From an uncultured bacterium (GTDB lineage Bacteria; Chloroflexota; UBA5177; JANWHV01): a stretch of DNA of 64,000 nucleotides. The notes below the pieces were generated by a model. The model did no database searches. It had not been told where the DNA came from and was given only the letters and a program-made list of their open reading frames with translations. This document shows, in pieces, positions 6,460-26,179 of the stretch. The DNA lies in assembly GCA_963729625.1 (NCBI GenBank), contig CAVSOU010000010.1, positions 736,001 through 800,000 on the forward strand, in the 5' to 3' direction. The translations under genes and the position numbers were made by a program. Position 1 is the first letter of the stretch. Every line of letters starts with the position of its first letter.

Positions 6460-6489
6460 TTGATACCGTACCGGGGTATGGGATATACT
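6460..6489 (+). promoter_or_regulatory. CsoR/CstR-type operator (ATACCGTACCGGGGTAT) inside a sigma70 promoter
   Basis: TTGATA-18-TATACT with ATACC-N7-GGTAT overlapping the -35 and spacer; motif recurs six times. Confidence 0.8.
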
Positions 6490-6561
6490 GTGTGCAGTGA
6501 AATACTTGCATGGTAGGACGCGGCGCGGTGCGCCTCGACCACGCTTGAAAGGAGCAGAACT

Positions 6562-6765
6562 GTGCGACAGCGTTGGGCATGGGCTAACAACCGGGTGGCA
6601 CCGCGCATACGCGTCGCGCTGGGGTTTGCCCTCGTCGCAGTCGGCTTCGCGGTAGGAGGAAGCACAATCGGTGTCGGATTGACGCTGCTCGGCGTCTTGG
6701 TGTTCCGGACGGGTACTTGTGGCCGCTGTGTGTTTGGCTCCTGCCCGCCGAGACGCGCCCGCTAG
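6562..6765 (+). CDS. DUF2892/YgaP-like small membrane protein
   Basis: AAAGGAG RBS; two TM helices, R-x-x-LG, G-x-C motif; precedes a rhodanese. Confidence 0.65.
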   Translation: MRQRWAWANNRVAPRIRVALGFALVAVGFAVGGSTIGVGLTLLGVLVFRTGTCGRCVFGSCPPRRAR

Positions 6766-6848
6766 CAGGTTGTGTTGCACAGTCAGGAGACGGAGGCGCT
6801 GACAGCGGCAGCCGCTGGAGACTTGATGAGGAGAAGAGGAGCAAGCAG

Positions 6849-7202
6849 ATGACTCAGTTCAGGCAATTGACGGGATCGACGGGGCCAACCGGGGCGGCGG
6901 AGGTGGAAGTGACCGCTGCGTACACCCTGCAACAGCAGGGCGCACAGCTGATTGACGTGCGCGAAGCGGATGAGTTTCGTTCGGGCCACGCGGTAGGAGC
7001 ACGGAACATACCTCTGGGCGAGCTACGCAGCCGTCTGCAGGAGCTGCAAGCCGGCGCGACGGTGCTGCTTATCTGCGAGAGCGGCAGCCGCAGCTGGTCG
7101 GCGCAGCTTCAGCTGCAGCACCTTGGCGTGCCCGACGTGCGGAACGTGATCGGCGGCACCAGCGCTTGGCGGTGGGCGCGGTTGCCCACGCGGGCCGGAT
7201 AG
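6849..7202 (+). CDS. Rhodanese-like sulfurtransferase
   Basis: LIDVRE-x2-EF-x2-GH, CESGSRS active loop, GGTSAW. Confidence 0.92.
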   Translation: MTQFRQLTGSTGPTGAAEVEVTAAYTLQQQGAQLIDVREADEFRSGHAVGARNIPLGELRSRLQELQAGATVLLICESGSRSWSAQLQLQHLGVPDVRNVIGGTSAWRWARLPTRAG

Positions 7203-7269
7203 CCTGCGGAGCCGCGCGTCACTTGGCAACGCGCGACAGAGCACGATAGAAGGGAAGACAGGTGAGGCT

Positions 7270-7680
7270 ATGGCGACCGAAATTGCAAGCGCGCTTGGCA
7301 TCGGCAAGCGCTTGAACCTGACCTTTGACACGGCCATGGAGCGGACCCGGGCGGCGCTCACGGCGCAGGGTTTCGGCGTGCTGACGGAAATCGATATTCG
7401 AAAGACGCTGAAGGAGAAGCTGGACGTGGACTTCCGGCGGTACACCATTCTGGGCGCGTGTAATCCGCCGTTTGCCCACCGCGCCCTCTCCGCGGACCTC
7501 GAAGTTGGGCTGCTGCTCCCCTGCAATGTCGTGTTGTATGAAGATGGTGCCGGCACTGTCGTGCGGGCCATGGACCCGCAAGCCGTGCTGGGACTGATGA
7601 CCAATCCGGCGATCACCAGCCTGGCCCGCGAGGTGCGCGACCGCCTGGTGCGCGCCTTCGCCACCCTTGACGACGACTGA
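7270..7680 (+). CDS. DUF302 domain protein
   Basis: GFGVLTEID, YTILGACNP, GLLLPCNVV motifs. Confidence 0.92.
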   Translation: MATEIASALGIGKRLNLTFDTAMERTRAALTAQGFGVLTEIDIRKTLKEKLDVDFRRYTILGACNPPFAHRALSADLEVGLLLPCNVVLYEDGAGTVVRAMDPQAVLGLMTNPAITSLAREVRDRLVRAFATLDDD

Positions 7681-7755
7681 CCACCAGCGCGTGCAGGTGC
7701 CTGCGACGCGGAACGATTGCCTACTGACAGCCGAACGCGCTGTCGAAAGGAGGAG

Positions 7756-8208
7756 TTGGCCCTGACACGCGCCAAGGCTGTGTTGCTGCTCTCGATTGCA
7801 CTTCTCGCGTGCGGTCTCCTGGTGCCGGCCTCTGCCGCCGGCGCGAGCCAGACGATCACCGGCGCCAAGGTCAGCGTGCCGGGAGGCAGCTATCGCGCCG
7901 TTACGCCGCGCGAGCTGGCGACGATGCTGGCCCACAAGAACTTCCTGCTGGTGAACGTGCACTACCCCTATGCCGGCGAACTGCCACATACCGATCGCTT
8001 CCTGCCTTACGACACGATCGGCCAGCACCTTTTGTCCCTGCCCGCGAACAAGCATGCCATGGTCGTACTGTACTGCCGCAGCGGGCGCATGAGCGATATC
8101 GCGGCGCGCACACTCGTCCGGCTCGGTTTCAACAACGTCTGGCATCTGGCGGGCGGCATGGATGCCTGGCAGCAGCAGGGCTACAAGCTACTCTTTCTCT
8201 TCCGCTGA
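7756..8208 (+). CDS. Secreted rhodanese-like protein
   Basis: Signal peptide ending ASA-A; YCRSGRMS, LAGGMDAW; start could be TTG 7756 or CTG 7762. Confidence 0.85.
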   Translation: MALTRAKAVLLLSIALLACGLLVPASAAGASQTITGAKVSVPGGSYRAVTPRELATMLAHKNFLLVNVHYPYAGELPHTDRFLPYDTIGQHLLSLPANKHAMVVLYCRSGRMSDIAARTLVRLGFNNVWHLAGGMDAWQQQGYKLLFLFR

Positions 8209-8260
8209 CCGGTCGTAACGACGGTCCGCTCCGCACGCCTGCACGCGAAAGGATCTTACC

Positions 8261-8680
8261 GTGAAGCTCCTATCCGGACTATCACTTGTCGCCCTGCTGA
8301 GGGCGCTCTCGGCACAAATCGTTTCCCATCCAACCGCGGTCCCGTGCATACCACGCGCCCGCTTTCTCACCGTTGCCGATTTGGCGGATCTCGACGAATG
8401 CTTTGCGCGCTCTCAGCAGCGGCCGGTCGTCCTGTTCCTCCACGATCCTGGCTGCCCGATCAGTGACGCAGCCTATCGGCAGGTGTCCGGACTCGATGCC
8501 GAGGTCAGGCTGGTCGACGTGCGCACCGGGAGGTCGATCACGCGCGCTGTGGAAGACCGCACCGGCGTGCGCCACGAATCGCCGCAGGTCCTCGTGCTCA
8601 AGAGTGGTCAGGCACTATGGTCGGCATCCCACTACGCCATCACCTCCCGCGCTGTCGAGGCGGCAATACTCGGGACCTGA
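8261..8680 (+). CDS. brxC: Monothiol bacilliredoxin BrxC/YtxJ (DUF2847)
   Basis: H-x3-CPIS and VRHESPQ, SH-x2-IT motifs; true start may be further downstream. Confidence 0.8.
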   Translation: MKLLSGLSLVALLRALSAQIVSHPTAVPCIPRARFLTVADLADLDECFARSQQRPVVLFLHDPGCPISDAAYRQVSGLDAEVRLVDVRTGRSITRAVEDRTGVRHESPQVLVLKSGQALWSASHYAITSRAVEAAILGT

Positions 8681-8888
8681 CAGGCGGGCCGGCACGGCCA
8701 GGTCCTGGGAACGTTGTTATATATGCCGCACTGCGCCGGTTCGAAGAGGTACGCGTACGCGCTGGCTCCTACGCCTCTAGCCCCCCACCATTTGCATCTT
8801 GCATGTATCGGCGTCAAAGCTTTGGATCGTAGTAGCTCGCAGCCAGCGCGTCGAGGTCGATCGGCGAGACGACACGCCCCTCGGACTG

Positions 8889-8936
8889 TTGACATGTAAC
8901 AAATACCATGTATATATAATACATGGTATTTGTTAC
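8889..8936 (+). promoter_or_regulatory. Strong promoter-like sequence with perfect 18-bp inverted repeat (likely TetR operator)
   Basis: TTGACA at 8889; GTAACAAATACCATGTAT-atata-ATACATGGTATTTGTTAC; TATAAT within the repeat. Confidence 0.7.
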
Positions 8937-9028
8937 CGCGGCGCTGTGCTTGCGCGTGCTGCCGGCGGCGTCTCGACAAGGTCGGTCCATGCCTGCGCTC
9001 ATCGAAGGGCTGCGGCAACCGTCACTGC

Positions 9029-9346
9029 ATGAATCCGGACGCCCACCGCGTAGAGCCACGGAAGATGGAAAGGACCGCCACACGGGATGAAACGCTTGAT
9101 GCGAGGGAAGCGATCTATGAGCTGCTCTCCACAGACGGCCACACTTATGTGCTGCAGAGCTATGCCCTGATCGTCGATCCCGGCTTGACCCAGGCTGCAC
9201 TGCCCACGCTATCTGGCCGCCTCACGCTGCCGAAGGGATGGCGGTACCGGATGGTCGTTCCGGCGCAGGACCTCGTGCTGAAAGTCACAGGCAAAGCTAC
9301 TGTCCTGCAGGACAGCCTGGACGATACCTATCAGCTGGTGAAGTAG
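9029..9346 (+). pseudogene. C-terminal fragment of a conserved hypothetical protein
   Basis: YEL-x3-DG-x2-YVLQSY...LPKGWRY...VLQD-x3-DTY looks protein-like; N-terminus not coding-like and no RBS. Confidence 0.5.
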
Positions 9347-9478
9347 CGTGGGGTTGGTCGCCTCCCTCCCCAGGCCACACCGTGGACACGGCGGTATGTG
9401 GCGCAGGACACCGAACATAGGAAGCAAACGGGCTCGTTCAGCAGTACGTGGCCGGTAAGAGTAAGAGGAGGACTGCTG

Positions 9479-10237
9479 TTGCCTCGACCACCTCTGAGCG
9501 AAGCGCAGCTCCAAGCCATGCGCACGCGCATTCTCGACGCCGCGCTCGACATCCTGCTCAAGGAAGGCCCACACGGTCTGACGTCGCGGGCGATCGCGCG
9601 TGCTCTGGGTATTGCTCATATGACCTTGTTCACCTACTTCGAGAACCAGGCAGCCCTCCTCGCGGCGCTGGCAGAGCGGGAAATGGCTCCCATTCGGACA
9701 GACCAGCAGCGTCTCGAACGCCAGGCGGAGGATGGTGATATCGTGCGGGTGATGCGCGACGCACTCGCGCTGTATCCGCGCTTCGCCGCCGAGCACTCCA
9801 GGCTCTTCCAGCTGGCCATGGCGGGCCCCCAGCTCGAAGGCGGCAGCGCTGACCGGGCTCGTGCCCGCTCCCAAACGCACGTCACGCACCTGGCGCGGCT
9901 GGTGCAGGTGGGCATCGCCCGCGGCACGTTTCACCCCCACGATCCCGTGCTGGCTGCTAGCGCGGTCATGGGCATGGTCGCGATGCCGCTGTTGCTGTTT
10001 GCCACCGGCCGTATCGCCTCCGAGGATCAGCGTGATGCGCTGGTGGCCGAGATGCTGGAGGCGGCGCTGCTGTATCTCACCGTCCCACCAGCGGCAGCGG
10101 AAGCGCACGGCGAGCACTGGAATCGACAAGCCGGTTCAAGAACAACCGGTGAACGTCCGCTGAGTCCGGAGGTCAAACCACTGCATGAGCCTGCACGTCG
10201 GGCCGTGGGTCAGAGAAGGACCGGGCCCGACCAGTAG
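9479..10237 (+). CDS. TetR/AcrR family transcriptional regulator
   Basis: GAGGAGG RBS then TTG; ILDAA...TSRAIARALGIAHMTLFTYFEN HTH. Confidence 0.9.
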   Translation: MPRPPLSEAQLQAMRTRILDAALDILLKEGPHGLTSRAIARALGIAHMTLFTYFENQAALLAALAEREMAPIRTDQQRLERQAEDGDIVRVMRDALALYPRFAAEHSRLFQLAMAGPQLEGGSADRARARSQTHVTHLARLVQVGIARGTFHPHDPVLAASAVMGMVAMPLLLFATGRIASEDQRDALVAEMLEAALLYLTVPPAAAEAHGEHWNRQAGSRTTGERPLSPEVKPLHEPARRAVGQRRTGPDQ

Positions 10238-10269
10238 TTGGGCCACCATTCACCAGAAAGAGAGACATC

Positions 10270-12553
10270 ATGGCCTGGGTCGGTCGGTTCGTCGTTCGCT
10301 TCCGCTATCCGGTGATCGCCGTCTGGATACTGGCAACCGTGTTCTGCATTCGTGCTTTTCCCTCACTCGGCAGCGTTGTCAACAGCGACAACAGCTCGTT
10401 CCTGCAGAGCAGTGCTCCCAGCAAACAGGCTGCACAGTTGACCACCGCGTTCCAGCCCGGCAACACCTACACGTCCGTTATCGTGGCCGCGCGGGATGGC
10501 GGGCCCCTGACGCCGGCAGACCAGGCGGCGATCACGCGAGCCGAAACCGCCGCCGGTGCCGTAAAGCACGTGCGCTTCGTCCACGATCAGGGGGTCTCCG
10601 CCGACGGTCATGCGCGCAAGGCCCTGGTCGGCATCGACGTCTCTCCCTCCGACAGCCGAGCAGGCGGCGTGGTCGATCGGTTGCGTTCCGAACTCAGCAC
10701 TTCTGGCGCGCCTGCCGGCTTGCAGCTGCACCTCACCGGCGCCGTCGCATCGAACGTGGACAACAGCCGCGCCGCAGCCGACGCGAACAAGCTGACGTCG
10801 ATACTCACCAACGTCGTCATTCTGATCATGCTGGTGGTCGTCTTCCGAGCGGTGCTGGCACCTCTCGTCACGCTGTTCCCCGCGGTGCTCGTATTGTTGC
10901 TTGCGGGTCCCGTGATCGCCCAGGCCTCGTCGCTAGGCTTCCAGGTATCGAGCTTCACGCAGGTCATCTTGACGGTGCTGGTCTTGGGAGCGGGCACCGA
11001 CTACGGCCTCTTCCTGATCCTGCGAGTGCGCGAAGAGCTGGGACGCGGGCACTCTCCAAGGGATGCAGTGATCGAGGCTGTGGACAAAGTGGGCGAGTCA
11101 ATCTCCTTTTCAGGCGGGACGGTGATAGGCGCCCTCTTGTGCCTGCTGCTGGCCAGCTTTGGGGTCTACCGTGGTCTCGGCCCGGGCCTGGCGATCGGCA
11201 TCGCCTTGATGCTGCTGGCCGCGTTGACCCTGCTGCCCGCCATGCTCAGTGTCCTTGGCCATGCTATCTTCTGGCCGCTCCGCGTCGAGCCGGGAGAGGC
11301 GAAAGTCGGCGCCTGGGGGCGGATCGCGGTTGCCATCGTGCAGCGCCCCATCACCACGCTCGTCGCAGGAGTGGTGTTCTTTGGCCTGCTCGCAGCCCTG
11401 GCGACCGGCTACGTGGCCGGTGGCTTCGCCAGCAGCTCGAGCGGCCCGAGCGGCAGCGACTCCTTGCAGGGTTCAACCGCAATCGCCGCGCATTATCCGC
11501 CTGCGGTGGTCAATCCCACCACGGTGATACTGGTGTTTCCCGCCTCGGTTTGGAACGATCTCGACCTGGTGCAGAGCGCTGAGCGCGCGCTGAGCCAACA
11601 ACCCGTCTTTCGGTCCGTCAGCGGCCTGCTGGACCCCAACGGCACGTCGATCCAGTCCACGCAGCTATCTGAGCTACACGCGCAGCTTGGCGACCCGTCG
11701 AAGCTGCCGCCGTCGGAACCGGCAGCCGTTGCCGCCCAGGTGCCGCTCGCAGACTACAACGCCTACAGGTCGACGGCACAGTTTGTCAGCTCCGACGGTC
11801 GCACCGTGCAGTTCTACACCACCCTCACTGCCGGCGACCCCGCCAGCTACAACGGCGCTGCAGGCGATCCCCTCCATTCGCCGGTCAGCCTCCTCAGTCG
11901 CCCGCGCCTCGGGAGCGAGTGCCAGCGGTGTGGTAGGGCAAGCCGCTTCAGGCTACGACGTCAGCAGTGCATCCAACTCGGACCTGCTGCACATCGTGCC
12001 GGTCGTGCTCCTGCTGATAGCCGTGTTGCTCGGCCTTGTCCTGCGCAGCCTTGTGGCGCCCCTCTACCTGGTGCTGAGCGTCGTCTTCTCCTATTTCGCT
12101 GCGTTGGGCGTGGCGGTGCTGGTGTTTATGCACGGCAAGGGCGACGCTGGGTTGAACTTTGTCCTGCCGTTTCTGATGTTCGTGTTCCTGATGGCGCTCG
12201 GCTCCGACTACAACATTCTGGTGATGAGCCGCATCCGGGAAGAGTCGTTCAAACGATTGCTGCACGACGCGATTGCCCAGGCATTGAATGCAACTGGAAG
12301 CACAGTGACCTCAGCGGGCATGATTCTGGCCGCCACATTCGCGGTCGTGGCGGTGACCGGATCAACAGATCAGGTTCGCCAGCTGGGAGTCGGTATCTCC
12401 ACGGGCGTCTTGCTGGATACCTTCCTGGTACGCACACTGCTCGTGCCGTCGATCGTCGTGCTGCTCGGGCGCTGGAACTGGTGGCCGTCATCCCTGGCGC
12501 ACGGCACATCGCCGGCAGCAGAGCCCGGGCGCCTGAACGCGGCAACAGCGTGA
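10270..12553 (+). pseudogene. MMPL/RND family transporter with +1 frameshift near 11848
   Basis: GAGTDYGLFL in ORF 10270; ALGSDYNILVMSRIREE and DTFLVRTLLVP in ORF 11687..12553. Confidence 0.85.
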
Positions 12554-12806
12554 CGAGACGGTCGGCATCGCATCGGGGCGTGCGACTACCGTGCAGGATG
12601 ACCGGGAGCAGACGGCTGACGGGAGCGCAGGTGCACCGTGCCGATCAGGTGTGCCTGTGCAGATACTCGTCGGGCGACTCCAGGTGCTGGGCTCGGGGTC
12701 CGGGTAACCGCACGATACACAGGTGATCAATTTGGGAAGACACGACAGCGCGCCGAAGCGCGAAACTGTGCTTCGGCGCGCCGGATGGCCAGTGGCTGGT
12801 TGGGCG

Positions 12807-13151
12807 TCAGTGGGCTGAGACGGCTCCCAGGACCTTGTCCAGCGCTCCCGCCAGCTCGGCCTTTGGGCGAACCCCGACGAACCGCTTCACCTCACGCCCC
12901 TGCTGGAACAACGCCAACGTGGGGATGCCCTGGATGCCGTAGCGCTGCGCCACAGCCGGGCTCTCGTCGACGTTGACCTTCACCGTCCGCACGCGGCCGT
13001 CGTAGGCTTGGGCCAGCTGCTCCACGATGGGGGCCACCATGTGGCAGGGGCCGCACCAGGGCGCCCAGAAGTCGACCAGCACCGGGACCGCGGCCTGCAG
13101 CACCGCGCGATCGAAGCCGCGCTCGTCGGTTGAGATAATGTTTGCGTTCAT
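12807..13151 (-). CDS. trxA: Thioredoxin
   Basis: VDFWAPWCGPC, GIPTL; AAGGAG RBS. Confidence 0.95.
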   Translation of the reverse strand: MNANIISTDERGFDRAVLQAAVPVLVDFWAPWCGPCHMVAPIVEQLAQAYDGRVRTVKVNVDESPAVAQRYGIQGIPTLALFQQGREVKRFVGVRPKAELAGALDKVLGAVSAH

Positions 13152-13192
13152 GCTCTTCTCCTTGCTGATAGCTTCTTGCATCTGATACCAGG

Positions 13193-13222
13193 ATTATACC
13201 ATACCCCCCTATGGTATATAAA
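13193..13222 (-). promoter_or_regulatory. CsoR/CstR-type operator and promoter of trxA
   Basis: ATACCATAGGGGGGTATGGTATAAT on minus strand; identical over 25 nt to the site at 26151-26175. Confidence 0.85.
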
Positions 13223-13286
13223 GGCATGACCCAGGACTCGCCCATGTCACGTACAGCAGTGCCATACAGCGTGCAAGACGTCAGGT

Positions 13287-13883
13287 TTGGCGAACCGCCT
13301 GCCGCGTCAGCCAACCATCAGCAACATCGCCCAAGATGCCGACGACGCGCCGCTGGTCACCCCGCTGACGCCGCCGGGTCCGGCCGACGTCGTGGTGGTG
13401 ACGGCGAAGGCACCTACTGCCCCATCAGGCGACCATCCCGTGCTCTGGCCGGCGCCGGCCGAGGACCTGCGCTACTGGTCCCTGTGCACCCTTGTGGGCA
13501 CGGTGGAGCTGCCTACGGTGGTGAACCGCTTGCCGAACGGCACCACTGACTACGGGTGCCGCGACAACGACGCGACCGCGGTCGATGCCGCCGGCTACTA
13601 CTTCTACGTCGTCGGTCGCGAGTCGCAACGCGCCGCCATTGCGCAGCTGCCCCACGTCACGTTTCTGCCGTTCTCGGCTATCGCGCCGACGGCAATCCAT
13701 TTCCTGTATCTGCGTAACAAACTGGCCAATCCCGACTTCGCCAATGCGGCACAGCGGGTGACGCAGTACAGCAATCCCGCCGCGGCGGCAGCGGCGATGG
13801 GTCCCTACTACCCGCGCGCCGCGGTGTGCGCGCTGAGCACACTCACGAGCAAAGGCGTGCAGGCCTGCCTTGCCCATCCCTGA
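13287..13883 (+). pseudogene. C-terminal fragment of a conserved hypothetical protein
   Basis: LRYWSLC...GC-x-D...GYYFYVVG...MGPYYP is protein-like; no RBS or clear start. Confidence 0.5.
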
Positions 13884-14040
13884 GCAGGTCGGGACAGGTG
13901 GTGCTGTCGGCCGGCTGCTTACAGGTGAAGGGGGGGTAGAGACACCACGAAGGACAAGGGGAGTCAGACGAAGCTTTCTGCGACCTTCACAGACTCTTCG
14001 ATCCGGTTCGTGTGTTGCTCGCTCTCCACCCTACTGGTCC

Positions 14041-14853: not shown

Positions 14854-14879
14854 GTACGATGCCAGTCGAGCATCACACG

Positions 14880-17742: not shown

Positions 17743-17820
17743 ACCGTCGCGCAGTCTGCCGATACCAGGTCACGCCTCCAGCGGCCTCAACTCCCCTGTA
17801 GGTGACATTACATCCAGTAC

Positions 17821-17850
17821 TTGCTACCATACGGGGGTATGGTATATACT
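17821..17850 (+). promoter_or_regulatory. CsoR/CstR-type operator in promoter
   Basis: TTGCTA-18-TATACT with CTACCATACGGGGGTAT. Confidence 0.8.
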
Positions 17851-17931
17851 GTAAGCGGTGAAACAAAGGCACTCGAAATCCTCGCCGCGCTTGGCGGCGA
17901 CACTGGCCCGGTTTCACGCAAGGGAGATGGC

Positions 17932-18138
17932 ATGATGAATCAGTTGGTAGCGTTCATGAATGGTCAGGCCGGTCGAGGACTGCGCGGCGTGCTCGGCCTG
18001 GCGCTCATAGTGGTCGGGCTTGCGGGTGTGCACGGAACCGGCGGCGCCGTATTGGCCGTCATTGGCGTGGTACCGCTGGCCATGGGTGCCTGGGGACGCT
18101 GCTTGTTCGAGCCGTTCGCCGCGCATCGTCCCGCCTGA
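17932..18138 (+). CDS. DUF2892/YgaP-like membrane protein
   Basis: FMNGQAGRGLRGVLG...GVVPLAMGAWGRCLF. Confidence 0.85.
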   Translation: MMNQLVAFMNGQAGRGLRGVLGLALIVVGLAGVHGTGGAVLAVIGVVPLAMGAWGRCLFEPFAAHRPA

Positions 18139-18279
18139 TCGGTTGGCGATCGACTCCTCCGTGCAACCGGAGCCTGCGACACGCATCCCGTCCGAGAGAC
18201 CGAACCGCCCGAGTGCTTGCAGAGCCACTCGATCCACCAACAAGACGCACATCAGCAGACGGTGAGAAAGGAATCACAC

Positions 18280-18627
18280 ATGTTCAAGCAGCTTCTGTCA
18301 TCCCTGGTTGGTACCCAGGATTCCACCATGAATGTCGACGTCGCACAGGCTCATGCCCTGCAGCAGGAGGGCGCGCAGCTCATCGACGTGCGGGAAACGA
18401 GTGAATTCCGCTCCGGCCACGCCAAGGGTGCCCGCAGTATTCCGCTCAGCCAGCTGCAGCAGCGCTTCGGCGAGATCAAGTCCGACAGGCCGGCGCTCGT
18501 GATCTGCCAGAGCGGCAGTCGCAGCCGGTCCGCGCAATCGATTCTGTTGCAGAAGCAGCTCACGGACGTACGCAACGTGCTCGGCGGCACGAGCGCCTGG
18601 CGGCGCGCCGGGCTACCAATGCAGTAG
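18280..18627 (+). CDS. Rhodanese-like sulfurtransferase (paralog of 6849..7202)
   Basis: LIDVRETSEFRSGH, CQSGSRS, GGTSAW. Confidence 0.92.
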   Translation: MFKQLLSSLVGTQDSTMNVDVAQAHALQQEGAQLIDVRETSEFRSGHAKGARSIPLSQLQQRFGEIKSDRPALVICQSGSRSRSAQSILLQKQLTDVRNVLGGTSAWRRAGLPMQ

Positions 18628-18716
18628 AGCGCGACAACATGCGTTCACCACGTCGTGCTACGATGCAATCCGGTGAGGACCGCCATGACTCTGTTCTCGT
18701 GTGAGGGGCTGCCATC

Positions 18717-19694
18717 GTGACCGCGCAGGATGTGTGGGCTGGTGCCCTTGCCGAGTGGTCCATCCCTAAGGTCATTCTGGCCGCGGCGCCTGCATCTCCC
18801 TGGGATCTCTTGGTGGACCAGTTTGCCGAGAAGGCCGCGCGCGCCGTGCGCAATCCAACGCCATCCCACGATCGCGCGCGCGAAGCGCTGCCGGCCGGTG
18901 GCTCCGTCCTCGACGTGGGGTGCGGCGCCGGCGCCGCCTCCCTGCCCCTGCAGGATCGCGCGGGTCGGGTGATGGGGATCGATCCCTCGCCGGAGATGCT
19001 GTACGCTTTTCGCTCCTTGGCGGGTGCGCGGGGGGTGTCGGTGGCCACTGTCGCCGGCACCTGGCCGGAATCGTCCACGCACGTGGATCAGGCCGACGTC
19101 GTGGTCTGCCACCACGTCGCCTATAACGTGCCCGATCTCGGGTCGTTCGCTCTCGCACTGGGCGAGCATGCCCGGCATCGTGTGGTCCTGGAGCTGACGG
19201 TCGAGCATCCGCTGCACCATCTCAACGAACTCTGGCTGCGCTTCCACGACCTCAAACGACCCGACCGGCCCACAGTCGACGACGCGCTCGCCCTCCTGCG
19301 CGAAACCGGAATCAAGCCGCACTGGGAGTCCTGGCAGGGGCCGCCGGGCCCGTGGTTCTGGCGACGGCAGGACCTCGTCACCTGGGTCCGGACGCGCGTC
19401 TGCCTGAAAAAAGACCAGGACGCGGAGCTTGATGCCGCGCTGGACGCTGAAATCACACGCGACGACGATGGACGTTGGTGCCTGCCCGGCAGGGCAGTTG
19501 CGACCGTTTGGTGGGATCGCCCACATTGGTCCGCGCAGTTGAGCGGTCAATCTCTTCATGACGGTGTGCTCTTGGCGCTCGGCGGATATGCACCGATCAT
19601 GGCGGTCACACGATACCTTGCTGAGCTGCCTTATCCTGCCCGCACACTGTCGCATGTAAAGAAAGGTCCCCCATGTCTGATTCTCTTCGCCTAG
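18717..19694 (+). CDS. Class I SAM-dependent methyltransferase
   Basis: VLDVGCGAG, GIDPS-x2-ML, DVVVCHHV-x-YNV; the last ~55 aa are probably read-through. Confidence 0.85.
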   Translation: MTAQDVWAGALAEWSIPKVILAAAPASPWDLLVDQFAEKAARAVRNPTPSHDRAREALPAGGSVLDVGCGAGAASLPLQDRAGRVMGIDPSPEMLYAFRSLAGARGVSVATVAGTWPESSTHVDQADVVVCHHVAYNVPDLGSFALALGEHARHRVVLELTVEHPLHHLNELWLRFHDLKRPDRPTVDDALALLRETGIKPHWESWQGPPGPWFWRRQDLVTWVRTRVCLKKDQDAELDAALDAEITRDDDGRWCLPGRAVATVWWDRPHWSAQLSGQSLHDGVLLALGGYAPIMAVTRYLAELPYPARTLSHVKKGPPCLILFA

Positions 19695-21373
19695 TGATCG
19701 TCGGCGGCGTCGCCGGCGGCGCCAGCGCCGCGGCCCGCGCGCGCAGGCTCTCCGAGGACGCCAGCATCGTGCTCTTCGAGCGCAGCCCCCATGTCTCCTT
19801 CGCCAACTGCGGGCTGCCTTACCATATCGGTGGCGTGATCGAGGAGCGAGAACGCTTGCTGATCCAGACGCCCGAGAGTCTGTACCAGCGCTTCAACATC
19901 GACGTCCGGGTGAACACCGAGGTGGTGTCCATCGATACCGCGGCGCAGGTGGTGGTGGCCAGGAACCTGAAGACGGGGGAGGAAACCCGGGAGCCCTATG
20001 ACGCGCTCGTGCTGAGCCCGGGCGCGTCCCCGATCGTGCCACCTATCCCAGGCGTTGACGACAGGCGCATCTTCACCCTGCGGAATATCGAGGACATGGA
20101 TGGCATCCTTGGCGCTCTCGCCACCCCAGGCATGGCTCGGGCTCTCGTGGTGGGGGCTGGCTACATCGGGCTGGAATTGGCGGAACAGCTCCGGCACCGG
20201 GGTCTGGCTGTGGCCGTGGTCGAACGGTTGCCTCACGTGTTGGGCGTGGCGGACGCGGAGATGACCTTCCCCCTGCAGGAGGAGTTGGTCCGGCAGGGGG
20301 TGGATTTGCGCCTGAACCAGGCCGTGACCGCCTTCCAGAGGGAGGGTGACGGATTGATAGCGATCCTGAACAACGGCGATCGTATTGCCTGCGATATGGC
20401 CGTGATGAGCGTGGGTGTGCGTCCGGAAACGCGACTGGCGCGAGAAGCGGGACTCGCGCTCGGCAGGACCGGCGGCATTCTGGTGGACGACCAGATGCGT
20501 ACCAGCATGCAGAATATATACGCCGTGGGTGACGCGGTGGAGATAAGAGACTTCGTGAGCGGCGATCAGGCGCTGATCCCGCTGGCCGGGCCCGCTAATC
20601 GTCAGGGCCGCATAGCGGCGGAGGTGATCTTTGGCCGCGCCAGCCGGTACAAAGCGACCCAGGGCACGGCTATCTGCAAGGTCTTCGACCTCACGTTCGC
20701 CATGACCGGGCTGTCTGAAGCCTCATTGCAACGCAAGGGCTTACCCTACCGCCGCATCTACGTGCATCCCGCCGACCACGCGACCTACTACCCCGGCGCG
20801 CACGCCATCTCGCTCAAGCTCCTCTTCGACCCGGAGAGCGGACGGATCCTCGGGGCACAGGCGGTGGGCGAGGCGGGTGTCGACAAGAGAATTGACGTCC
20901 TCGCGGTGGCGCAGCGCGCCGGCATGACCGTCTTCGATCTGGAGGATCTCGAGCTCTGCTATGCTCCGCCCTTCGGCAGCGCCAAGGATGTGGTGAACAT
21001 GGCAGGCTTCGTGGCGTCCAACGTGCTTCGCGGCGATGTGGCGCTCTGGGAGCCGGAGGAACTGGCCTCACTGACCGATCACCAGACGCTGTTGGACGTG
21101 CGCAGTGTCCGGGAGTATGCGCTTGGCACGATCCCCGGTGCCACCTGCTTGCCGGTGGACGACCTGAGGGATCACCTGGACGACCTGCCGAAGGACAAGG
21201 AATTGCTCGTCCTCTGCCAGGTGGGTCTGCGCGGCTATGTGGCAGCCCGTCTGCTGACCCAACATGGGTTCACCGTGCGCAATCTCTCTGGCGGCTATCG
21301 CCGGTACACCATGTGGAAAGGCACTCAGGCCGTGCAGCCCATACGTGAAGCTGCGCTCGCGAGCGCGGTTTGA
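19673..21373 (+). CDS. CoA-disulfide/persulfide reductase with C-terminal rhodanese domain (CoADR-RHD)
   Basis: GGVAGGAS, SFANCGLPY, GAGYIG, YAPPF, C-terminal LDVR...CQVGLRG. Confidence 0.93.
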   Translation: MSDSLRLVIVGGVAGGASAAARARRLSEDASIVLFERSPHVSFANCGLPYHIGGVIEERERLLIQTPESLYQRFNIDVRVNTEVVSIDTAAQVVVARNLKTGEETREPYDALVLSPGASPIVPPIPGVDDRRIFTLRNIEDMDGILGALATPGMARALVVGAGYIGLELAEQLRHRGLAVAVVERLPHVLGVADAEMTFPLQEELVRQGVDLRLNQAVTAFQREGDGLIAILNNGDRIACDMAVMSVGVRPETRLAREAGLALGRTGGILVDDQMRTSMQNIYAVGDAVEIRDFVSGDQALIPLAGPANRQGRIAAEVIFGRASRYKATQGTAICKVFDLTFAMTGLSEASLQRKGLPYRRIYVHPADHATYYPGAHAISLKLLFDPESGRILGAQAVGEAGVDKRIDVLAVAQRAGMTVFDLEDLELCYAPPFGSAKDVVNMAGFVASNVLRGDVALWEPEELASLTDHQTLLDVRSVREYALGTIPGATCLPVDDLRDHLDDLPKDKELLVLCQVGLRGYVAARLLTQHGFTVRNLSGGYRRYTMWKGTQAVQPIREAALASAV

Positions 21374-21794
21374 GGCTAGGCGATCTATAGCAATTCACCT
21401 ATCCCAGCGCCGTCTCACGCCACCAGAGAGAATGTGCCCCATGCACACTTCCACTCCCAACCAGATCAGTGAGTGGGCAACCTTGACGGCAAGCAATGGC
21501 GAGGCTCTGACATTATCGCATTCCGCTAGGCCGACGATGGCTTGGTTTGCGATTGCAGTCGCATCGCGGCACTCGCGTGGCTGCGGCAGTCCAAGGAGCT
21601 TCGGACAACGCATACCGCCAAGGAAGCCGCGCAAGGCCGCTGGAGGGAGGTCATCAGAGCTACGAATGTCAGACGCCACGTTCACGCGCCCATCTCTGTT
21701 TGCCGCAACATTGCTCGGCCTTTCGCATCAGTATTTGTTGCCGGCAAGGATGCGATTCTGCTGGCGTGACGCAAGTCACAGCCACCGAGTGTGC

Positions 21795-22751
21795 CTAGAG
21801 TGACAGCGTCGTGCCCACGCTGTTGGCGACGAATGCGTCGGGCATCGTCCGAGCAATCTGGTGCGTGGCGATCCAGCCTGTGCAGTGCCCGGGCATCACA
21901 AATCTCGGGCCAATAGCCTGCAGCGCCGCGATCGTCGGCGGAATACGCGACTCGAACATGGCGCCGCTGAGATGGAAGCCGCCAACCACCGCGTATATCG
22001 CCGGAACACCAGTCAACAGCTGAGCGTTCCGGATCACGTTGATGATGCCGGAATGTCCGCAGCCTGTCACGATGACCAGGCCCTTGTCGCGCACGTTGGC
22101 AATAGCACACTGATCATCCATGATCAAGGGGTCGGGCTCCCAGACACCCTGACGCCTGGCTTGATGGATCGGAAAGCCCGTCTCGAACCGGGTGGTGCGG
22201 GCTACCTCGCCCGAGACGAGTAGCATGTCGTCCACCAGCATCGAGGGGCCAGCCTCCTCGATCAGCGCGATGTGCTCTCGCTCCAGGTCCGATTTTCGGG
22301 GCGGAGGCAGGCGCTGCAACTCCTCGCCCGTGGGCAGGATCACGCGTCGTTCGAGATACGCGTCGGGGTGCAGGATCAGGGGAACGTTGCGCGAGCCGAG
22401 GCGATCAATCAGGCCGGGGAGACCCATGGCGTGGTCGGCATGGCCGTGACTGAGGACTATCGCCTGAATATCGCGCGCGTTGATCCCCAGCACATCCAGG
22501 TTGCGCAGGATGCCCGTCCGGCTCACTCCGGTGTCGAACAGGACGACACCCGTGCGACCATCACGTTCCACCTCGATCAGGGCTGAGAAGCCGTGTTCGG
22601 CGAGCGGCGTCTCATGTTCAAAGAAATCGAGACGCAGCGGAAAACGCCGGACCACCTCGTTTCCGGCCATCAAGACGTCAAACGTGTTGTCCATGACCAG
22701 CGTGACGCGGACGGCGTCGACCGGAGACAGGGAAATCGTTTGCTGAGGCAT
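21795..22751 (-). CDS. MBL-fold metallo-hydrolase
   Basis: AEHGFS, FDTG, SHGHADH, TGCGHSG, GGFHL, PGHCTG. Confidence 0.9.
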   Translation of the reverse strand: MPQQTISLSPVDAVRVTLVMDNTFDVLMAGNEVVRRFPLRLDFFEHETPLAEHGFSALIEVERDGRTGVVLFDTGVSRTGILRNLDVLGINARDIQAIVLSHGHADHAMGLPGLIDRLGSRNVPLILHPDAYLERRVILPTGEELQRLPPPRKSDLEREHIALIEEAGPSMLVDDMLLVSGEVARTTRFETGFPIHQARRQGVWEPDPLIMDDQCAIANVRDKGLVIVTGCGHSGIINVIRNAQLLTGVPAIYAVVGGFHLSGAMFESRIPPTIAALQAIGPRFVMPGHCTGWIATHQIARTMPDAFVANSVGTTLSL

Positions 22752-22922
22752 TGCATTGCTCCTCCGGACTTCACATGATCCTTTGTCCACAGCATAGCGA
22801 ATCAACCGCAAGCCTCATATCCGGCACCGTAGAAGCGCCTCTGCATGGCTAGGACATGCCGGGGCGCTGCAACCAAGACCGCCTGTCGGAGCTTGTCGCC
22901 TGTTCCCACAAGGTGCCGCACG

Positions 22923-22971
22923 TTGACGTCGCGCGGGCGTAGCCTGTACAGTTGTAATTGGCATATGCCAA
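22923..22971 (+). promoter_or_regulatory. Promoter with palindrome TTGGCATATGCCAA upstream of the DUF134 gene
   Basis: TTGACG-18-TACAGT; perfect 14-bp palindrome at 22958-22971. Confidence 0.55.
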
Positions 22972-22989
22972 GAACCTGGGGGGTTGGTT

Positions 22990-23316
22990 ATGGCTCGCCC
23001 GATCATGTGTCGCAGGATCAACTGCTCGCCTGCCGCCCGCTATTTCAAGCCGCGAGGCATTCCCATGACGGAGCTTGAAGAGGTGTTATTGACACTGGAC
23101 GAGCTCGAAGCAGTGCGACTGGCCGATCGCCATGGCCTCTATCAAGAAGCGGCCGCCGCGCAGATGGGCGTGTCGCGCCAGACGTTCGGCAACATCCTGA
23201 CCAGCGCCCATCGCAAGGTGGCGGAGGCGTTGCTCGACGGTAAGGCGCTTCGCATCGCGGATGCACCGCACTGGCCCCCCTCGATCGCTCGTCAACCCAA
23301 TCTGGAGGAGTCATGA
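22990..23316 (+). CDS. DUF134 domain DNA-binding protein
   Basis: MARP-x2-CRRI...YFKPRG...LTLDELEAVRLAD...MGVSRQTF. Confidence 0.92.
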   Translation: MARPIMCRRINCSPAARYFKPRGIPMTELEEVLLTLDELEAVRLADRHGLYQEAAAAQMGVSRQTFGNILTSAHRKVAEALLDGKALRIADAPHWPPSIARQPNLEES

Positions 23317-23690
23317 AAGTCTGTTTCCCTGTGCTGCATCCCCAAGGTCTGGACTCGGTCATCAGTCGCCACTTCGGTACGGCACCCCACTTCATGGTGT
23401 ACGACACCGATAGACAGGAACCGTCCGTCGTGTCGGCTGAAGGCGACGGCTCCTGCCAGTGCGGATCGCCGCTGCTAACAAACCTCGACGTCGACGCCGT
23501 GGTCTGCGGAGGCATCGGTGCCGGTGCCATAAAGCGGCTGTCCGCACGCGGTATCAAGGTCTATGCAACCGAAGCCGCGACGGTGGCTCTGTCGTTGGGT
23601 CTGCTCACACAGGGTCTGCTCACAGAGGTGATCGACGGCACCTGCCACGCCGATCACGGCCAAAGCACTCACGGCTGCCATGCGCAGTGA
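23313..23690 (+). CDS. NifB/NifX-family Fe-Mo cofactor-binding domain protein
   Basis: HFGTAPHF, CGGIGAGA, His/Cys tail; ATGA overlap with DUF134. Confidence 0.88.
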   Translation: MKVCFPVLHPQGLDSVISRHFGTAPHFMVYDTDRQEPSVVSAEGDGSCQCGSPLLTNLDVDAVVCGGIGAGAIKRLSARGIKVYATEAATVALSLGLLTQGLLTEVIDGTCHADHGQSTHGCHAQ

Positions 23691-24002
23691 GAGCACGCAA
23701 CGCGCTGGTTGTTGCGTGGTACGGGCCCACGCCGCTGGTCAAGAACCCAGCCGCCTGGTTTTGGTGCTGGGGAGAGGCCGGACGCGTCGCGGGGTACGAA
23801 CAAGGGCCAGCGGCTGGATGTGCAGGGACCGACTGAGCTCGCTTCCGAGGATCGATTGCGTTGCACGCCTCGGTCGTACGGTGGAACAGTGGTTTCTAAC
23901 TGCACTGAGCGTACAAACTAGTTCAGCCCATCGGGCTTGCTGCGCGTCGCCGATGGGCCTCGTGGAGAGGCAGGCGGCGCGCTGAAAGATGATGAAGGAC
24001 AG

Positions 24003-24995
24003 ATGGCCAAGATCGATGAGCGCGGCACAACTACCCCAACACGACAAGATCGAACTCAGGCTGAATCCCCATCAACCCGAGATAGTCGCGGGAAAGCACG
24101 ACAAGCGCACCAAGATGGCCAGGCGGCCCAAACTGGTCGCGGCAAACAGCGTCGTGAGGCGATGAGACGCGCCACGCAGCCGTGGTGGCGGCGCCGTGTG
24201 GCGATCGGTGGCGGGGGGATCGTGGTTCTCGCGATCGTGGTCACCGTCTTCGTCGCCTTCTCCCATCAAGGTGGCTCAACTGGTGACACGCAGATAGGCA
24301 CCCTCGCGCCGACCGACCTCGTGCAGAAAGTGGCGACGACCAATCCAGTTATCATCGCGGCGGTTGGCGGCGGCAAGCTGCCGACGGGTGACACGCTGCC
24401 TCCGCCAATCCACGCAATCGCAGGCCCTGCGCTCACGGCAAACGGCAAGCCTGAGTTGCTTTTCATCGGCGGTGAATACTGCTCGCACTGCGCTGGCCTG
24501 CGCTGGAGCGTGATCAACGCTCTGGGCCGGTTCGGTACTTTCTCCAATCTGCAGTACATGCGCACGTCGGATGACTATGGCGACCTGGCGACGCTCGACT
24601 TCTACTACAGCGCCTACAGCAGCCCGTACGTGAGTTTCGTGCCGGTGGAGAACAGAGACCGCGCCGCGAATGAGCTTCAGCCCCTCACCACCGACCAAGC
24701 GCAGCTGCTCGACACGGTTGGCGGCAGCACATACCCACTGCTGGACATCGCCGGCCAGTATACGAACGACGCGAAAGGTGCCTATGGAGGCGGCTATGAC
24801 TTCAGTGTCCTGGATGGGAAGGACTGGTCGCAGATTGTAGGCGCCTTGAGCACTGCCGGCGATCCGATCACGGAAGGAATAGTCGGCACCGGGAACTACA
24901 TCACCGCTGCCCTCTGCCGAGCGACCCACGACCAGCCGAGCAGCGCGTGCAATGCTCCCACGATCCAACGGCTGAAGAAGCAGCTGGCACCGTAG
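24003..24995 (+). CDS. DUF929 family membrane-anchored thioredoxin-like protein
   Basis: TM helix; KPELLFIGGEYCSHCAGLRW...ALGRFGTFSNL; ITAALC. Confidence 0.85.
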   Translation: MAKIDERGTTTPTRQDRTQAESPSTRDSRGKARQAHQDGQAAQTGRGKQRREAMRRATQPWWRRRVAIGGGGIVVLAIVVTVFVAFSHQGGSTGDTQIGTLAPTDLVQKVATTNPVIIAAVGGGKLPTGDTLPPPIHAIAGPALTANGKPELLFIGGEYCSHCAGLRWSVINALGRFGTFSNLQYMRTSDDYGDLATLDFYYSAYSSPYVSFVPVENRDRAANELQPLTTDQAQLLDTVGGSTYPLLDIAGQYTNDAKGAYGGGYDFSVLDGKDWSQIVGALSTAGDPITEGIVGTGNYITAALCRATHDQPSSACNAPTIQRLKKQLAP

Positions 24996-25236
24996 CCGTG
25001 CGATGGCGGCGACCCGGCTATGCATGCCACGCCGATCTCAACTGCACGCACGCGTACGGCGCCACGGGAGCCCTGATGAGACGGCACGCGACTGGATAGC
25101 GCTCGCACTGCAGCCGGGGATAGAGGACAAGCGTGCGAGACCCGTTGTACGCTGCTACGACGCTCAAGACAACTGGCGCAAGACGTGTGTTCGGGCTGGA
25201 CAGATCGACATACCACCAATCGGGTAGCCCAAGGGC

Positions 25237-25593
25237 TCACGGAGAAGCTGTCATGCCCGCCAACACAGTGGATAAGGCGTCGACGCCGCCCTGATAGTAG
25301 GCGACCCATTGCACCGGCGGGTGCTCTTGCTGCTGGGACGCGGCAAGGTGGCCGCCCCAATCAGCCACCAGGGCCTCCACGCCGACACGAAGGTCGCGTG
25401 CATCCCGGGCTCGCGCGAGGCGCTTTGCCGCCAGGAGGGCGTACAGCTGCCCTTCGTCATACTTGAGGCCGCCGGTCATTCGTCCGCTCTTCTGCAGCTG
25501 GCAGAGCGCGACGCCCCCGGTCTTGCCCGCAAACGATCGCTCGACTGCTGCAACTCGTTCCTCGATGAACAACTGGACGGCGTGTGTCTCCAT
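25237..25593 (-). CDS. Hypothetical protein downstream of the CsoR-family gene
   Basis: 118-aa helical ORF, single Cys, KYDEG motif; GAGGGA RBS-like sequence. Confidence 0.6.
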   Translation of the reverse strand: METHAVQLFIEERVAAVERSFAGKTGGVALCQLQKSGRMTGGLKYDEGQLYALLAAKRLARARDARDLRVGVEALVADWGGHLAASQQQEHPPVQWVAYYQGGVDALSTVLAGMTASP

Positions 25594-25848
25594 GAGGCCG
25601 TCCCTCGCCATTCTCCGCCGGAGCAGTGTGTGAGCGTAACTGCGCGGTGCCCGACACTTACGCGCTCTTGGACCGTGCCGTAGCCGCAGGTACGTCGGCA
25701 TGTCGTCCTCTCACGTGGTGGGGTGCGCAGGCGGAACGGTGTCACCCGCAGCCTATGGGGCCCGAGGTCCGCCTTCGTCTTGTTCTACATCGTCGGGGTA
25801 GCGCTCAGCAGGCTGCGAGCCAGCGCGGAAGCCCGATAGCCCTGGACG

Positions 25849-26115
25849 CTAGATGTGGGTCAGCAAAGCGATGCTGCCGGCAATCGCGCGCCGCTCCTTC
25901 TCGGGCACGGAGACGAGGCACTCGTCCACGCTGTCAGCTACCACCGCGGCGGCGACCTTCTCCAGTGCCGCGCGCGCTGCCAGTATCTGGGTGAGAATCT
26001 GGTCGCACTGGCGTCCCTCGCGTACCATCTTGCCGATGCCGTGCACTTGCCCCTCAACACGAGCGAGGCGATCCAGGACGCTGTCGTTGGCCTCCCTCCT
26101 TGATCGTTCTTCCAT
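25849..26115 (-). CDS. CsoR/RcnR-family repressor, CstR-like (Cys-Cys without Cu-binding His)
   Basis: RLARVEGQVHGI-x2-M...C-x2-ILTQI-x-A-x3-AL...DSVDEC. Confidence 0.9.
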   Translation of the reverse strand: MEERSRREANDSVLDRLARVEGQVHGIGKMVREGRQCDQILTQILAARAALEKVAAAVVADSVDECLVSVPEKERRAIAGSIALLTHI

Positions 26116-26150
26116 GACCTTGCCTTCCTTTCAGCCGTGCTTACGCCGCT

Positions 26151-26179
26151 ATTATACCATACCCCCCTATGGTATTCAA
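26151..26179 (-). promoter_or_regulatory. Autoregulatory operator and promoter of the CsoR-family gene
   Basis: TTGAAT-17-TATAAT containing ATACCATAGGGGGGTAT. Confidence 0.88.

Follow-up and report, generated by a model that had tools for sequence, protein, structure and literature searches.

The stretch analysed here (the window) comprises 64,000 nucleotides, positions 736001–800000 of contig C10 (CAVSOU010000010.1), in the 5.41-Mb (5,411,702 bases), 21-contig assembly GCA_963729625.1 of an uncultured, soil-type, Ktedonobacteria-like Chloroflexota bacterium. Between positions 6460 and 26179 the sequence ATACC-N7-GGTAT occurs exactly at 6463, 13201, 16436, 16578, 16583 and 26159, and these boxes, together with one imperfect copy, define six sites, called S1 to S6 below, that lie ahead of two rhodanese operons, of genes for a thioredoxin, a zinc-ribbon protein and a PIG-L family enzyme, and of the gene for an 88-residue CsoR-family repressor. 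We consider it quite likely, from the sequence features set out below, that this repressor is of the CstR/ScCsoR type, that it controls the six promoters and that it is released from them by sulfane sulfur.

The rarity of the box was assessed against 100 dinucleotide-preserving shuffles of the window and, for the whole genome, against the reversed pattern. Six exact matches in the window compare with a shuffle mean of 0.03, none of the 100 shuffles reaching six; when one mismatch is allowed the pair at 17824/17829 is added, and the total of eight compares with a shuffle mean of 0.43. The whole genome holds 10 exact matches, six of them within this 19.7-kb stretch, and a single match to the reversed control. 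Counted as distinct loci, five of nine lie in this stretch, which makes up 0.36% of the genome (binomial tail 8e-11). A position weight matrix (PWM) trained on S1 to S6 scores these sites at 33.5–38.8 bits, four sites elsewhere in the genome, on which it was not trained, at 24.9–30.9 bits, and the best background sequence at 18.4 bits; no further PWM site of at least 7 bits is present in the window, including near the TauE, metallo-β-lactamase (MBL) and sulfide:quinone reductase (SQR) genes mentioned below. The boxes listed in the preliminary description of this DNA, including the one with a mismatch at 17824, are confirmed by the shuffles, and their frequency near these genes lies well above background. 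The description had also assigned the box, a G/C-tract pseudo-palindrome, to the operator type of the CsoR family, and the literature agrees: the Streptococcus mitis cst operator, as printed, fits ATACC-N7-GGTAT (PMC8643695), and ScCsoR (SCO0620) of Streptomyces coelicolor binds ATACCn6GGTAT at the promoters of pdo, tauE, rhod and its own gene and represses them (PMC7533328).

Read in the direction of the promoter, all six sites have in common an extended asymmetric form, ATACC-N7-GGTAT-GGTAT, which occupies the spacer between a −35 element (TTGnnn) and the −10 element. A consensus promoter scan of positions 6300–26290, scored out of 12, yielded nine promoter-like sites where 2.8 were expected, the three top hits (10/12 each) being S6 (26179–26151, minus strand), S1 (6460–6489, plus strand) and S2 (13222–13193, minus strand), and the fourth (9/12) S5 (17821–17850, plus strand). 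S6, ahead of the repressor gene, reads TTGAAT-17-TATAAT with a TG extension and contains the box ATACCATAGGGGGGTATGGTAT (38.8 bits); S2, ahead of the thioredoxin gene, reads TTTATA-18-TATAAT, also with TG, and has the same score of 38.8 bits. S1 consists of TTGATA-18-TATACT with the box ATACCGTACCGGGGTATGGGAT (33.5 bits), and S5 of TTGCTA-18-TATACT with the box CTACCATACGGGGGTATGGTAT, which has one core mismatch and scores 36.0 bits. S3 (16431–16452, minus strand; operator ATACCGTAGGTAGGTATGGTAT, 35.1 bits) reads toward the zinc-ribbon gene from within a weaker promoter, TTGTAT-17-TATGCT, recognised by eye, and agrees at 29/33 bases with the promoter of a second gene for thioredoxin, located on contig C14. 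S4 (16578–16599) is a perfect 22-nt palindrome, ATACCATACCATGGTATGGTAT, scoring 35.9 bits on both strands; its end lies 7 nt ahead of the earliest start codon that the PIG-L gene could have, and its −35 element is weak. S2 and S6, the sites of the thioredoxin and repressor genes, agree in every base over exactly 25 nt (13193–13217 = 26151–26175), just as had been noted.

Since the second GGTAT of the extended box overlaps the extended −10 element (TGgTATAAT), one may ask if the boxes merely go back to a single promoter carried along by gene duplication, with no repressor binding to them, a view with which the existence of paralogous boxed genes (two DUF2892-rhodanese operons, two thioredoxin genes, three regulators) would agree. 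We find it hardly credible, for S2 and S6 share their 25 nt in front of unrelated genes and the identity ends at the box, S3 and the C14 thioredoxin promoter are alike only over a 33-nt core, the dyad symmetry, which in S4 is perfect, would be needless in a promoter, and across genomes the box and the regulator occur together.

S6 had been interpreted as serving a hypothetical protein, the sixth target, encoded by an open reading frame (ORF) at 26169–26600 on the plus strand. That assignment falls: the ORF has an atypical codon-position GC content and runs antisense to the remnant of a 3-hydroxyisobutyrate-dehydrogenase-like gene, of which the C-terminal half is left (26181–26552, minus strand; NAD_binding_11 positions 59–119 of 122), and the box faces the repressor gene, cstR. 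As the ORF is an antisense shadow and S6 is oriented toward cstR, we read S6 as an autoregulatory site, to which the repressor would bind.

The repressor gene (25849–26115, minus strand) encodes a protein that matches PF02583 (DUF156) with an E value of 7e-21 (74.9 bits, cut-off 22.8) as well as nine members of the family in the PDB. Its sensing site is made up of Cys37, Ser62 and Cys66. Ser62 aligns opposite the metal-binding histidine of 6ahx, of InrS (5fmn) and of Geobacillus CsoR (4m1p), and opposite an asparagine in the chains of 7mq1 and 7mq3, presumably the CstR of pneumococcus studied by Fakhoury et al. and deposited under the title csoR; the match to 7mq1 has an E value of 3.5e-9 only, hence the two are distant relatives. 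Across 28 aligned homologues C37 and C66 do not vary, and position 62 holds S, G, N or Y but in no case His. The protein thus fits the x-C-x-C fingerprint of CstR-type persulfide sensors (Cys at X and Z, Y not His), found in clusters 3, 4 and 10 of the sequence similarity network (SSN) of the family, the persulfide sensors, and loss of the histidine at Y uncouples Cu(I) binding from DNA release (PMC8643695). By this fingerprint the repressor is a member of the CstR/ScCsoR type, C-x-C and not C-H-C, and probably nearer to the actinomycete cluster 3 than to cluster 10, a lead given by actinobacterial matches and by a cysteine numbering that is the same as in ScCsoR.

An ordinary Cu(I)-sensing CsoR, whose boxes would mark a copper response, has in its favour that copper sensors also belong to PF02583 and use an identical operator core, and that the best NCBIfam name for the repressor, below threshold, is RicR (49.7 bits, cut-off 175). 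It is nevertheless very improbable: the C-H-C ligand set for Cu(I) is not present, Ser62 replacing the histidine, which is missing here and in 28/28 homologues; Pfam finds no copper gene behind any of the six boxes; and the genome has a separate C-H-C paralogue with a different operator, adjoining an 876-residue ORF taken as CopA-like.

The genes behind the boxes were identified by Pfam and NCBIfam profiles, PDB sequence matches and motif reading. Operon 1 (6562–8680, plus strand), behind S1, consists of five genes: a YgaP-TM/DUF2892 gene (6562–6765) with a weak match (E 0.0073, below cut-off), a rhodanese (ORF 6717–7202, probable start Met45), a DUF302 protein (7270–7680), a second rhodanese (7717–8208), whose hydrophobic, signal- or lipobox-like N-terminus suggests by eye that it is exported, and a monothiol BrxC/YtxJ protein (8261–8680) with a GCPIS motif, which scores 77.5 bits with TIGR04019, barely over the cut-off of 77.25, and 73.6 against 24.2 with PF11009. 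Operon 2 (17821–21373, plus strand), behind S5, has four genes, for a YgaP-TM/DUF2892 protein (ORF 17821–18138, probable start near 17932), a rhodanese (18217–18627), a class I S-adenosylmethionine (SAM)-dependent methyltransferase (18717–19694), for which the profile matches name nothing beyond generic, unannotated class I families, and a 566-residue homologue of CoA-persulfide reductase (CoAPR)/Npsr with a C-terminal rhodanese domain (19673–21373). The PDB matches of this fusion are 3nta (5e-190), 3icr (6e-166) and 8a56, entitled 'Coenzyme A-persulfide reductase' (1e-160), the first two being presumably the Shewanella persulfide reductase and the CoADR-RHD of Bacillus anthracis. The active-site cysteine of CoADR proteins stands in the motif SFxNCxLPY; here Cys46 lies within SFANCGLPY and Cys515 in the rhodanese loop, so that by its fold and both cysteines the predicted product is a CoAPR/Npsr of the CoADR-RHD type, with a TIGR03385 score of 489.9, below the cut-off of 578.8. 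On the minus strand of the 5' part of this gene (19704–19872) there is a sub-threshold Rfam match to V_AS7, a Vibrio antisense RNA (61.2 bits, gathering threshold 90, E 1.7e-9), which most likely reflects nucleotide conservation with gammaproteobacterial homologues and not an RNA gene.

Three further boxed genes stand singly. The thioredoxin behind S2 (12807–13181, minus strand) has the WCGPC motif (PF00085 E 5.5e-32; TIGR01068 120 bits, cut-off 96.8), and the gene toward which S3 reads (15983–16219, minus strand) encodes an FmdB-type zinc ribbon of 78 residues (PF09723, Zn_ribbon_8, E 2.8e-12). The sequence between S3 and this gene (16220–16430, minus strand) contains no ORF of at least 30 codons and has no Rfam match, and represents either a long leader or a small RNA not recognised as such; a structured RNA was rejected for want of the Rfam match, and a thioredoxin remnant because the likeness to the C14 thioredoxin locus ends at the 33-nt promoter. 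The PIG-L family protein next to S4 (16606–17439, plus strand; PF02585 E 3.1e-28) has the motifs AHPDDE and HPDH; it stays under the BshB1/BshB2 equivalog cut-offs (61.2 against 195 for TIGR04000, and 56.6 against 182.5) and under that of Mca, and is filed only as a PIG-L deacetylase or amidase. BshC (PF10079) was not found in the genome, which is 87% complete, by a search that matched B. subtilis, Thermus and Deinococcus as positive controls, and a bacillithiol link for BrxC and the PIG-L protein is therefore unsupported. Most of the gene identities given in the preliminary description are upheld by Pfam and NCBIfam, except that the first DUF2892 match is weak and ORF 26169–26600 is not a credible gene, and so is its statement that the targets are sulfur or thiol genes and not copper genes. 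Taken together, the boxed set appears to serve mostly sulfur transfer and reductive removal (rhodaneses, CoAPR, thioredoxin, BrxC).

The same set would also suit a general sensor of thiol oxidation, by disulfides or electrophiles, with the regulon as a thiol-redox stress response in which sulfurtransferases are included only by chance. Thioredoxin, BrxC/YtxJ and a PIG-L protein, related to thiol-conjugate amidases, are typical of disulfide stress, a paralogue of the repressor (paralogue 3, see below) accompanies an OsmC-like peroxidase, and CstRs also react with tetrathionate (PMC8643695); moreover, TTHA1953 of Thermus thermophilus lost DNA binding by disulfide formation and not with NaHS (PMC10318464). 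We think this rather improbable, as the three rhodaneses and the CoAPR homologue with both catalytic cysteines are persulfide-directed, rhodanese-DUF302 is the core conserved in relatives, and, of the characterised family members, both ScCsoR and YrkD sense sulfane sulfur (PMC7533328, PMC9918477), YrkD being unresponsive to H2O2 or GSSG (PMC9918477).

Co-occurrence of the box with the regulator was compared within the genus only (n=4 relatives), since box counts over the full set of 40 relatives are noisy outside the genus; two of these relatives (G024 and G036) have high reversed-control counts. In a further one, G031, the sequence ATACCGCAACACGGTAT and close variants occur on many contigs (13 exact core matches, control 0), which looks like a dispersed repeat element and not an operator set. 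Within the genus, orthologues of the repressor are present in G001 (68% identity) and G003 (63–64%), and no homologue at E ≤ 1e-10 was found in G002 and G004. The exact boxes follow the same division: against the reversed control they number 10 to 1 in the genome under study, 6 to 2 in G001 and 7 to 0 in G003, and in the two homologue-free genomes 2 to 2 (G002) and 3 to 3 (G004). PWM sites lie ahead of the cstR orthologues in G001, in G003 and on two contigs of Ktedonobacteraceae metagenome-assembled genomes, and in these regions also ahead of rhodanese-DUF302 operons, of a ygaP-TM gene and of a thioredoxin orthologue, the latter being, in G001, 67% identical and preceded by a box. In relatives the box thus stands ahead of gene families that it also precedes in the window, and the core conserved across relatives is rhodanese-DUF302. 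In G001 the orthologue of the window's TauE gene (76% identity) stands directly upstream of the cstR orthologue.

A second comparison used 80 metagenome loci encoding homologues of the repressor, sorted by what they have at the equivalents of positions 37, 62 and 66. Among the 22 C-x-C loci, 10 have a homologue of the rhodanese, DUF302, YgaP-TM, SQR or PIG-L genes, none has a homologue of the CopA-like ORF and nine have a PWM site of at least 18 bits within −300 to +150 of the regulator gene; among the 57 C-H-C loci the corresponding numbers are 0, 18 and 3, with the reservation that many of the loci are short contigs, in which absences are weak evidence. The single C-H-A locus was not included in these tallies. 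The distribution of the CopA-like ORF (0/22 against 18/57) speaks once more against a copper response of the boxed genes. One C-x-C-type locus, L068, has a PIG-L homologue of 64% identity 1.5 kb from a C-G-C regulator. Matches labelled 'CoADR_Rhd' in the metagenome and relatives' loci turned out to be cross-matches of rhodanese domains only, and no full-length CoAPR is present among the metagenome loci fetched.

The regulon had been called self-contained, a description that no longer holds, as the genome has five PF02583 genes, three of them C-x-C and two C-H-C, and four further boxes elsewhere. The three C-x-C paralogues are 52–61% identical to one another and have the stretches RLARIEGQ and AARAALEKVAAA in common. 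At position 25 the clade of the window's repressor has His and the others have Arg, a candidate determinant of operator specificity. Paralogue 3 (C10:930445–930687) lies with an OsmC-like gene in an operon (C10:930445–931450; locus L006, 6443–7451) that also encodes a 159-residue protein without family and is preceded by a box of 29.2 bits. Paralogue 5 (C10:1058949–1059188; locus L007) has its own box of 30.9 bits and is divergent from a cluster for TusA, FlpD/MvhD, an HdrA-like protein and an Fe-S protein (C10:1058949–1066000), on whose side there is a weak box of 15.3 bits. These two operators, the box of the second thioredoxin gene on C14 and an orphan box at C10:937774, with no gene downstream, are the four untrained high-scoring sites. 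The two C-H-C paralogues have other operators: that at C8:505676–505966 an ATACT-N7-AGTAT dyad, that at C11:267150–267542 CACCCCACC..GGTGGGG between TTGACA and TATGAT. The latter adjoins the 876-residue ORF, which is taken as CopA-like by size and position only and whose homologues stand beside 18 C-H-C regulators in the metagenome loci. The differing operators may insulate the C-H-C paralogues from the ATACC boxes.

Because two more C-x-C paralogues use nearly the same operator, the regulon is not closed, and three repressors probably share S1 to S6 or divide them up. The six sites could form an overlapping network and not a single switch, S1 at 6463 answering mainly to paralogue 3 and S5 at 17824 perhaps to paralogue 5; we hold this possible, while leaning against it. 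Each C-x-C operon has a high-scoring box of its own, the second thioredoxin gene bears the same box, S1 differs from the operator of the osmC-paralogue 3 operon at 1/22 bases and from S6 at 4/22, and S5 differs from the paralogue 5 operator at 3/22 and from S6 at 2/22. Yet the identity of S2 and S6 over 25 nt ties at least the thioredoxin gene to the site of the window's repressor, the sites differ little from one another and follow no known specificity rule, and all six lie within 20 kb of this one repressor, which suggests that they form a local unit. A wider form of the idea, which we likewise consider less likely than not, is a sulfane-sulfur network in which the three C-x-C paralogues read one code, ATACC-N7-GGTAT-GGTAT, with small half-site differences, at no fewer than 10 promoters, the two copper-type paralogues having moved to other operators and so avoiding cross-talk. 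Its gene set would include CoAPR, two thioredoxins, BrxC, rhodaneses, DUF2892 and DUF302 proteins, the OsmC protein and possibly the TusA-MvhD-HdrA-like cluster. If true, it would be the first multi-paralogue, multi-operon CstR network, and DUF302, DUF2892, PIG-L, the FmdB zinc ribbon and the methyltransferase would gain a role in persulfide handling.

The boxes, their placement in promoters, the fingerprint, the gene identities and the conservation in relatives, as observed above, point in our preferred reading to repression by the 88-residue protein and release by sulfane sulfur, for which DNA binding, the inducer and the pairing of paralogues with sites are what we infer. The reduced repressor, probably as a tetramer, would bind the ATACC-N7-GGTAT(-GGTAT) operator, fill the −35/−10 spacer of the six promoters and exclude RNA polymerase. 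Persulfides or polysulfides, as sulfane sulfur, would cross-link Cys37 of one subunit to Cys66' of its neighbour, upon which the repressor would leave the DNA and the boxed genes be switched on: the DUF2892-rhodanese operon with DUF302, the exported rhodanese and BrxC/YtxJ, the DUF2892-rhodanese operon with the methyltransferase and CoAPR, and singly the thioredoxin, the PIG-L enzyme, the zinc-ribbon protein and the repressor itself. The rhodaneses, possibly together with the DUF2892 and DUF302 proteins, would then move sulfane sulfur, and CoAPR, thioredoxin and BrxC would reduce it; removal of sulfane sulfur by thioredoxin has a precedent (PMC6831875).

Several observations weigh against this reading. 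Five promoter overlaps had been proposed, of which those of S1, S2, S5 and S6 pass the consensus scan; S3 and S4 are weaker and fail it. S3 lies some 200 nt from the zinc-ribbon gene, and the orientation of S4 is ambiguous on account of its symmetry. The three near-identical C-x-C paralogues make the assignment of sites to repressors uncertain, and the assembly has a completeness of 87% and a contamination of 5%. A search of sequencing runs for positions 16300–21400 gave no RNA run, and one DNA run in which 9% of the sampled words occur. In the four same-genus genomes no homologues of CoAPR, PIG-L and BrxC were found (at E 1e-40, 1e-20 and 1e-10, respectively), so that the membership of these three is read from this genome, and for PIG-L also from locus L068; they seem to have been added in this genome only. 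The exact 17-nt core is present within 250 nt upstream of 30/54 C-H-C genes having at least 120 nt of upstream sequence, and the core box is therefore the general operator of the family and not persulfide-specific. The earlier classification of the regulator as CstR-like is sustained by Cys37, Ser62 and Cys66 and not by the core box, which marks no CstR regulon; what speaks for a persulfide sensor is confined to the extended form of the box, the fingerprint and the genes nearby. As ATACC-N7-GGTAT is common to copper and persulfide sensors, it is the fingerprint and the targets that decide, and not the box. Finally, the C-x-C-like TTHA1953 responded in vitro to oxidation and not to NaHS (PMC10318464), for which reason the fingerprint cannot give the inducer with certainty.

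The stretch contains further genes without a box. A TauE/SafE sulfite-exporter homologue is encoded at 14041–14988 (minus strand; PF01925 E 7e-44), and an SQR homologue near the repressor at 27040–28497 (minus strand; 3hyv 1.8e-40, 3sz0 1.8e-34). The C-terminal fragment of a 1-Cys peroxiredoxin (26498–26758, plus strand) lies between the repressor and SQR genes, and divergent from TauE there is a LysR-family gene of 151 codons (15415–15870, plus strand) with the helix-turn-helix (HTH) domain only, which is probably a stump, no substrate-binding domain having been found in any frame downstream of it; the dehydrogenase and peroxiredoxin remnants and this stump suggest rearrangement of the region. 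The MBL protein at 21795–22811 was considered as a persulfide dioxygenase (PDO) and rejected, its NCBIfam matches being of RNase Z and B3 lactamase types and far under cut-off. A perfect 18-nt inverted repeat (GTAACAAATACCATGTAT / ATACATGGTATTTGTTAC, 5 nt spacing; 8896–8936), right after a TTGACA and upstream of ORF 8930–9346, a TetR gene (9398–10237) and an MMPL gene (10270–12726), is probably a TetR operator and not a CstR-type box. Genes for a DUF134 (HTH) protein and a small NifX/NifB-type 'Nitro_FeMo-Co' protein (22984–23690, plus strand) are followed by one for a DUF929 protein (23937–24995), all without a box.

Among known systems, ScCsoR, which senses polysulfide via Cys37 and Cys66, resembles the repressor in having exactly two cysteines with the same numbering, in autoregulation and in having a rhodanese target, with release by polysulfide as its mode of induction (PMC7533328). 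Its circuit is a compact four-gene cluster (PDO-rhodanese, TauE, rhodanese and regulator), as opposed to six promoters over 20 kb here, where no PDO is boxed, TauE is unboxed, the regulators are three paralogues, and thioredoxin, BrxC, PIG-L, the zinc ribbon, the methyltransferase and CoAPR come in addition. The CstRs of Enterococcus faecalis and S. mitis (SSN cluster 10) have in common with the present system an x-C-x-C sensor and, in the rhdA-coaP-rhdB operon, single-domain rhodaneses next to a CoAPR; they differ in controlling one operon from one operator region and in an asparagine at Y (7mq1) in place of serine (PMC8643695). With the cst operon of Staphylococcus aureus (tauE-cstR-cstA-cstB-sqr) the system would share repression through a persulfide-reactive cysteine pair, and TauE and SQR homologues are found nearby (PMC8643695, PMC10318464), but it has no CstA (the multidomain sulfurtransferase) or CstB (the PDO-rhodanese), and its SQR and TauE genes carry no box. 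The preliminary description was right that the membership is unlike that of S. aureus cst; the set does resemble rhdA-coaP-rhdB of E. faecalis and S. mitis and the 'SUL module' of an Arthrobacter plasmid, and the difference from cst is further weakened by the unboxed TauE and SQR homologues in the same stretch. The SUL module, with a CsoR-family regulator, a small hypothetical protein, two rhodaneses, DUF302 and TauE, comes near to operon 1 and the relatives' set; it is known from annotation only, neither an operator nor a regulon having been described for it, and includes a sulfur dioxygenase and a major facilitator superfamily (MFS) transporter that are absent here (PMC6305408). TTHA1953 is likewise a cysteine-dependent CsoR-family repressor of sulfur genes in several dispersed units, as proposed here, but it controls Sox genes through a motif without the G/C tract and does not respond to NaHS (PMC10318464), and YrkD of Bacillus licheniformis, a cysteine-dependent CsoR-family repressor of sulfur genes released by elemental sulfur and polysulfide, controls, unlike the present repressor, one 11-gene cluster with SQR and PDO (PMC9918477).

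A full-text search of a limited literature collection revealed no publication describing such a CstR/thioredoxin or DUF302-rhodanese persulfide regulon. The principle, a CsoR-family repressor with a cysteine pair, an operator inside the promoter and rhodanese or CoAPR targets, is already established; the novelty lies in the phylum, in how many promoters are involved, in three C-x-C paralogues that coexist and have one operator code, and in thioredoxin, BrxC, PIG-L, the zinc ribbon and the methyltransferase as candidate members. The present analysis would thus extend sulfane-sulfur sensing of the CstR/ScCsoR type to Chloroflexota, in a regulon that exceeds the single operons of Firmicutes and Streptomyces in size and dispersion, and gives functional context to DUF302 and the small DUF2892 membrane protein, which in several genomes lie under this operator together with rhodaneses.

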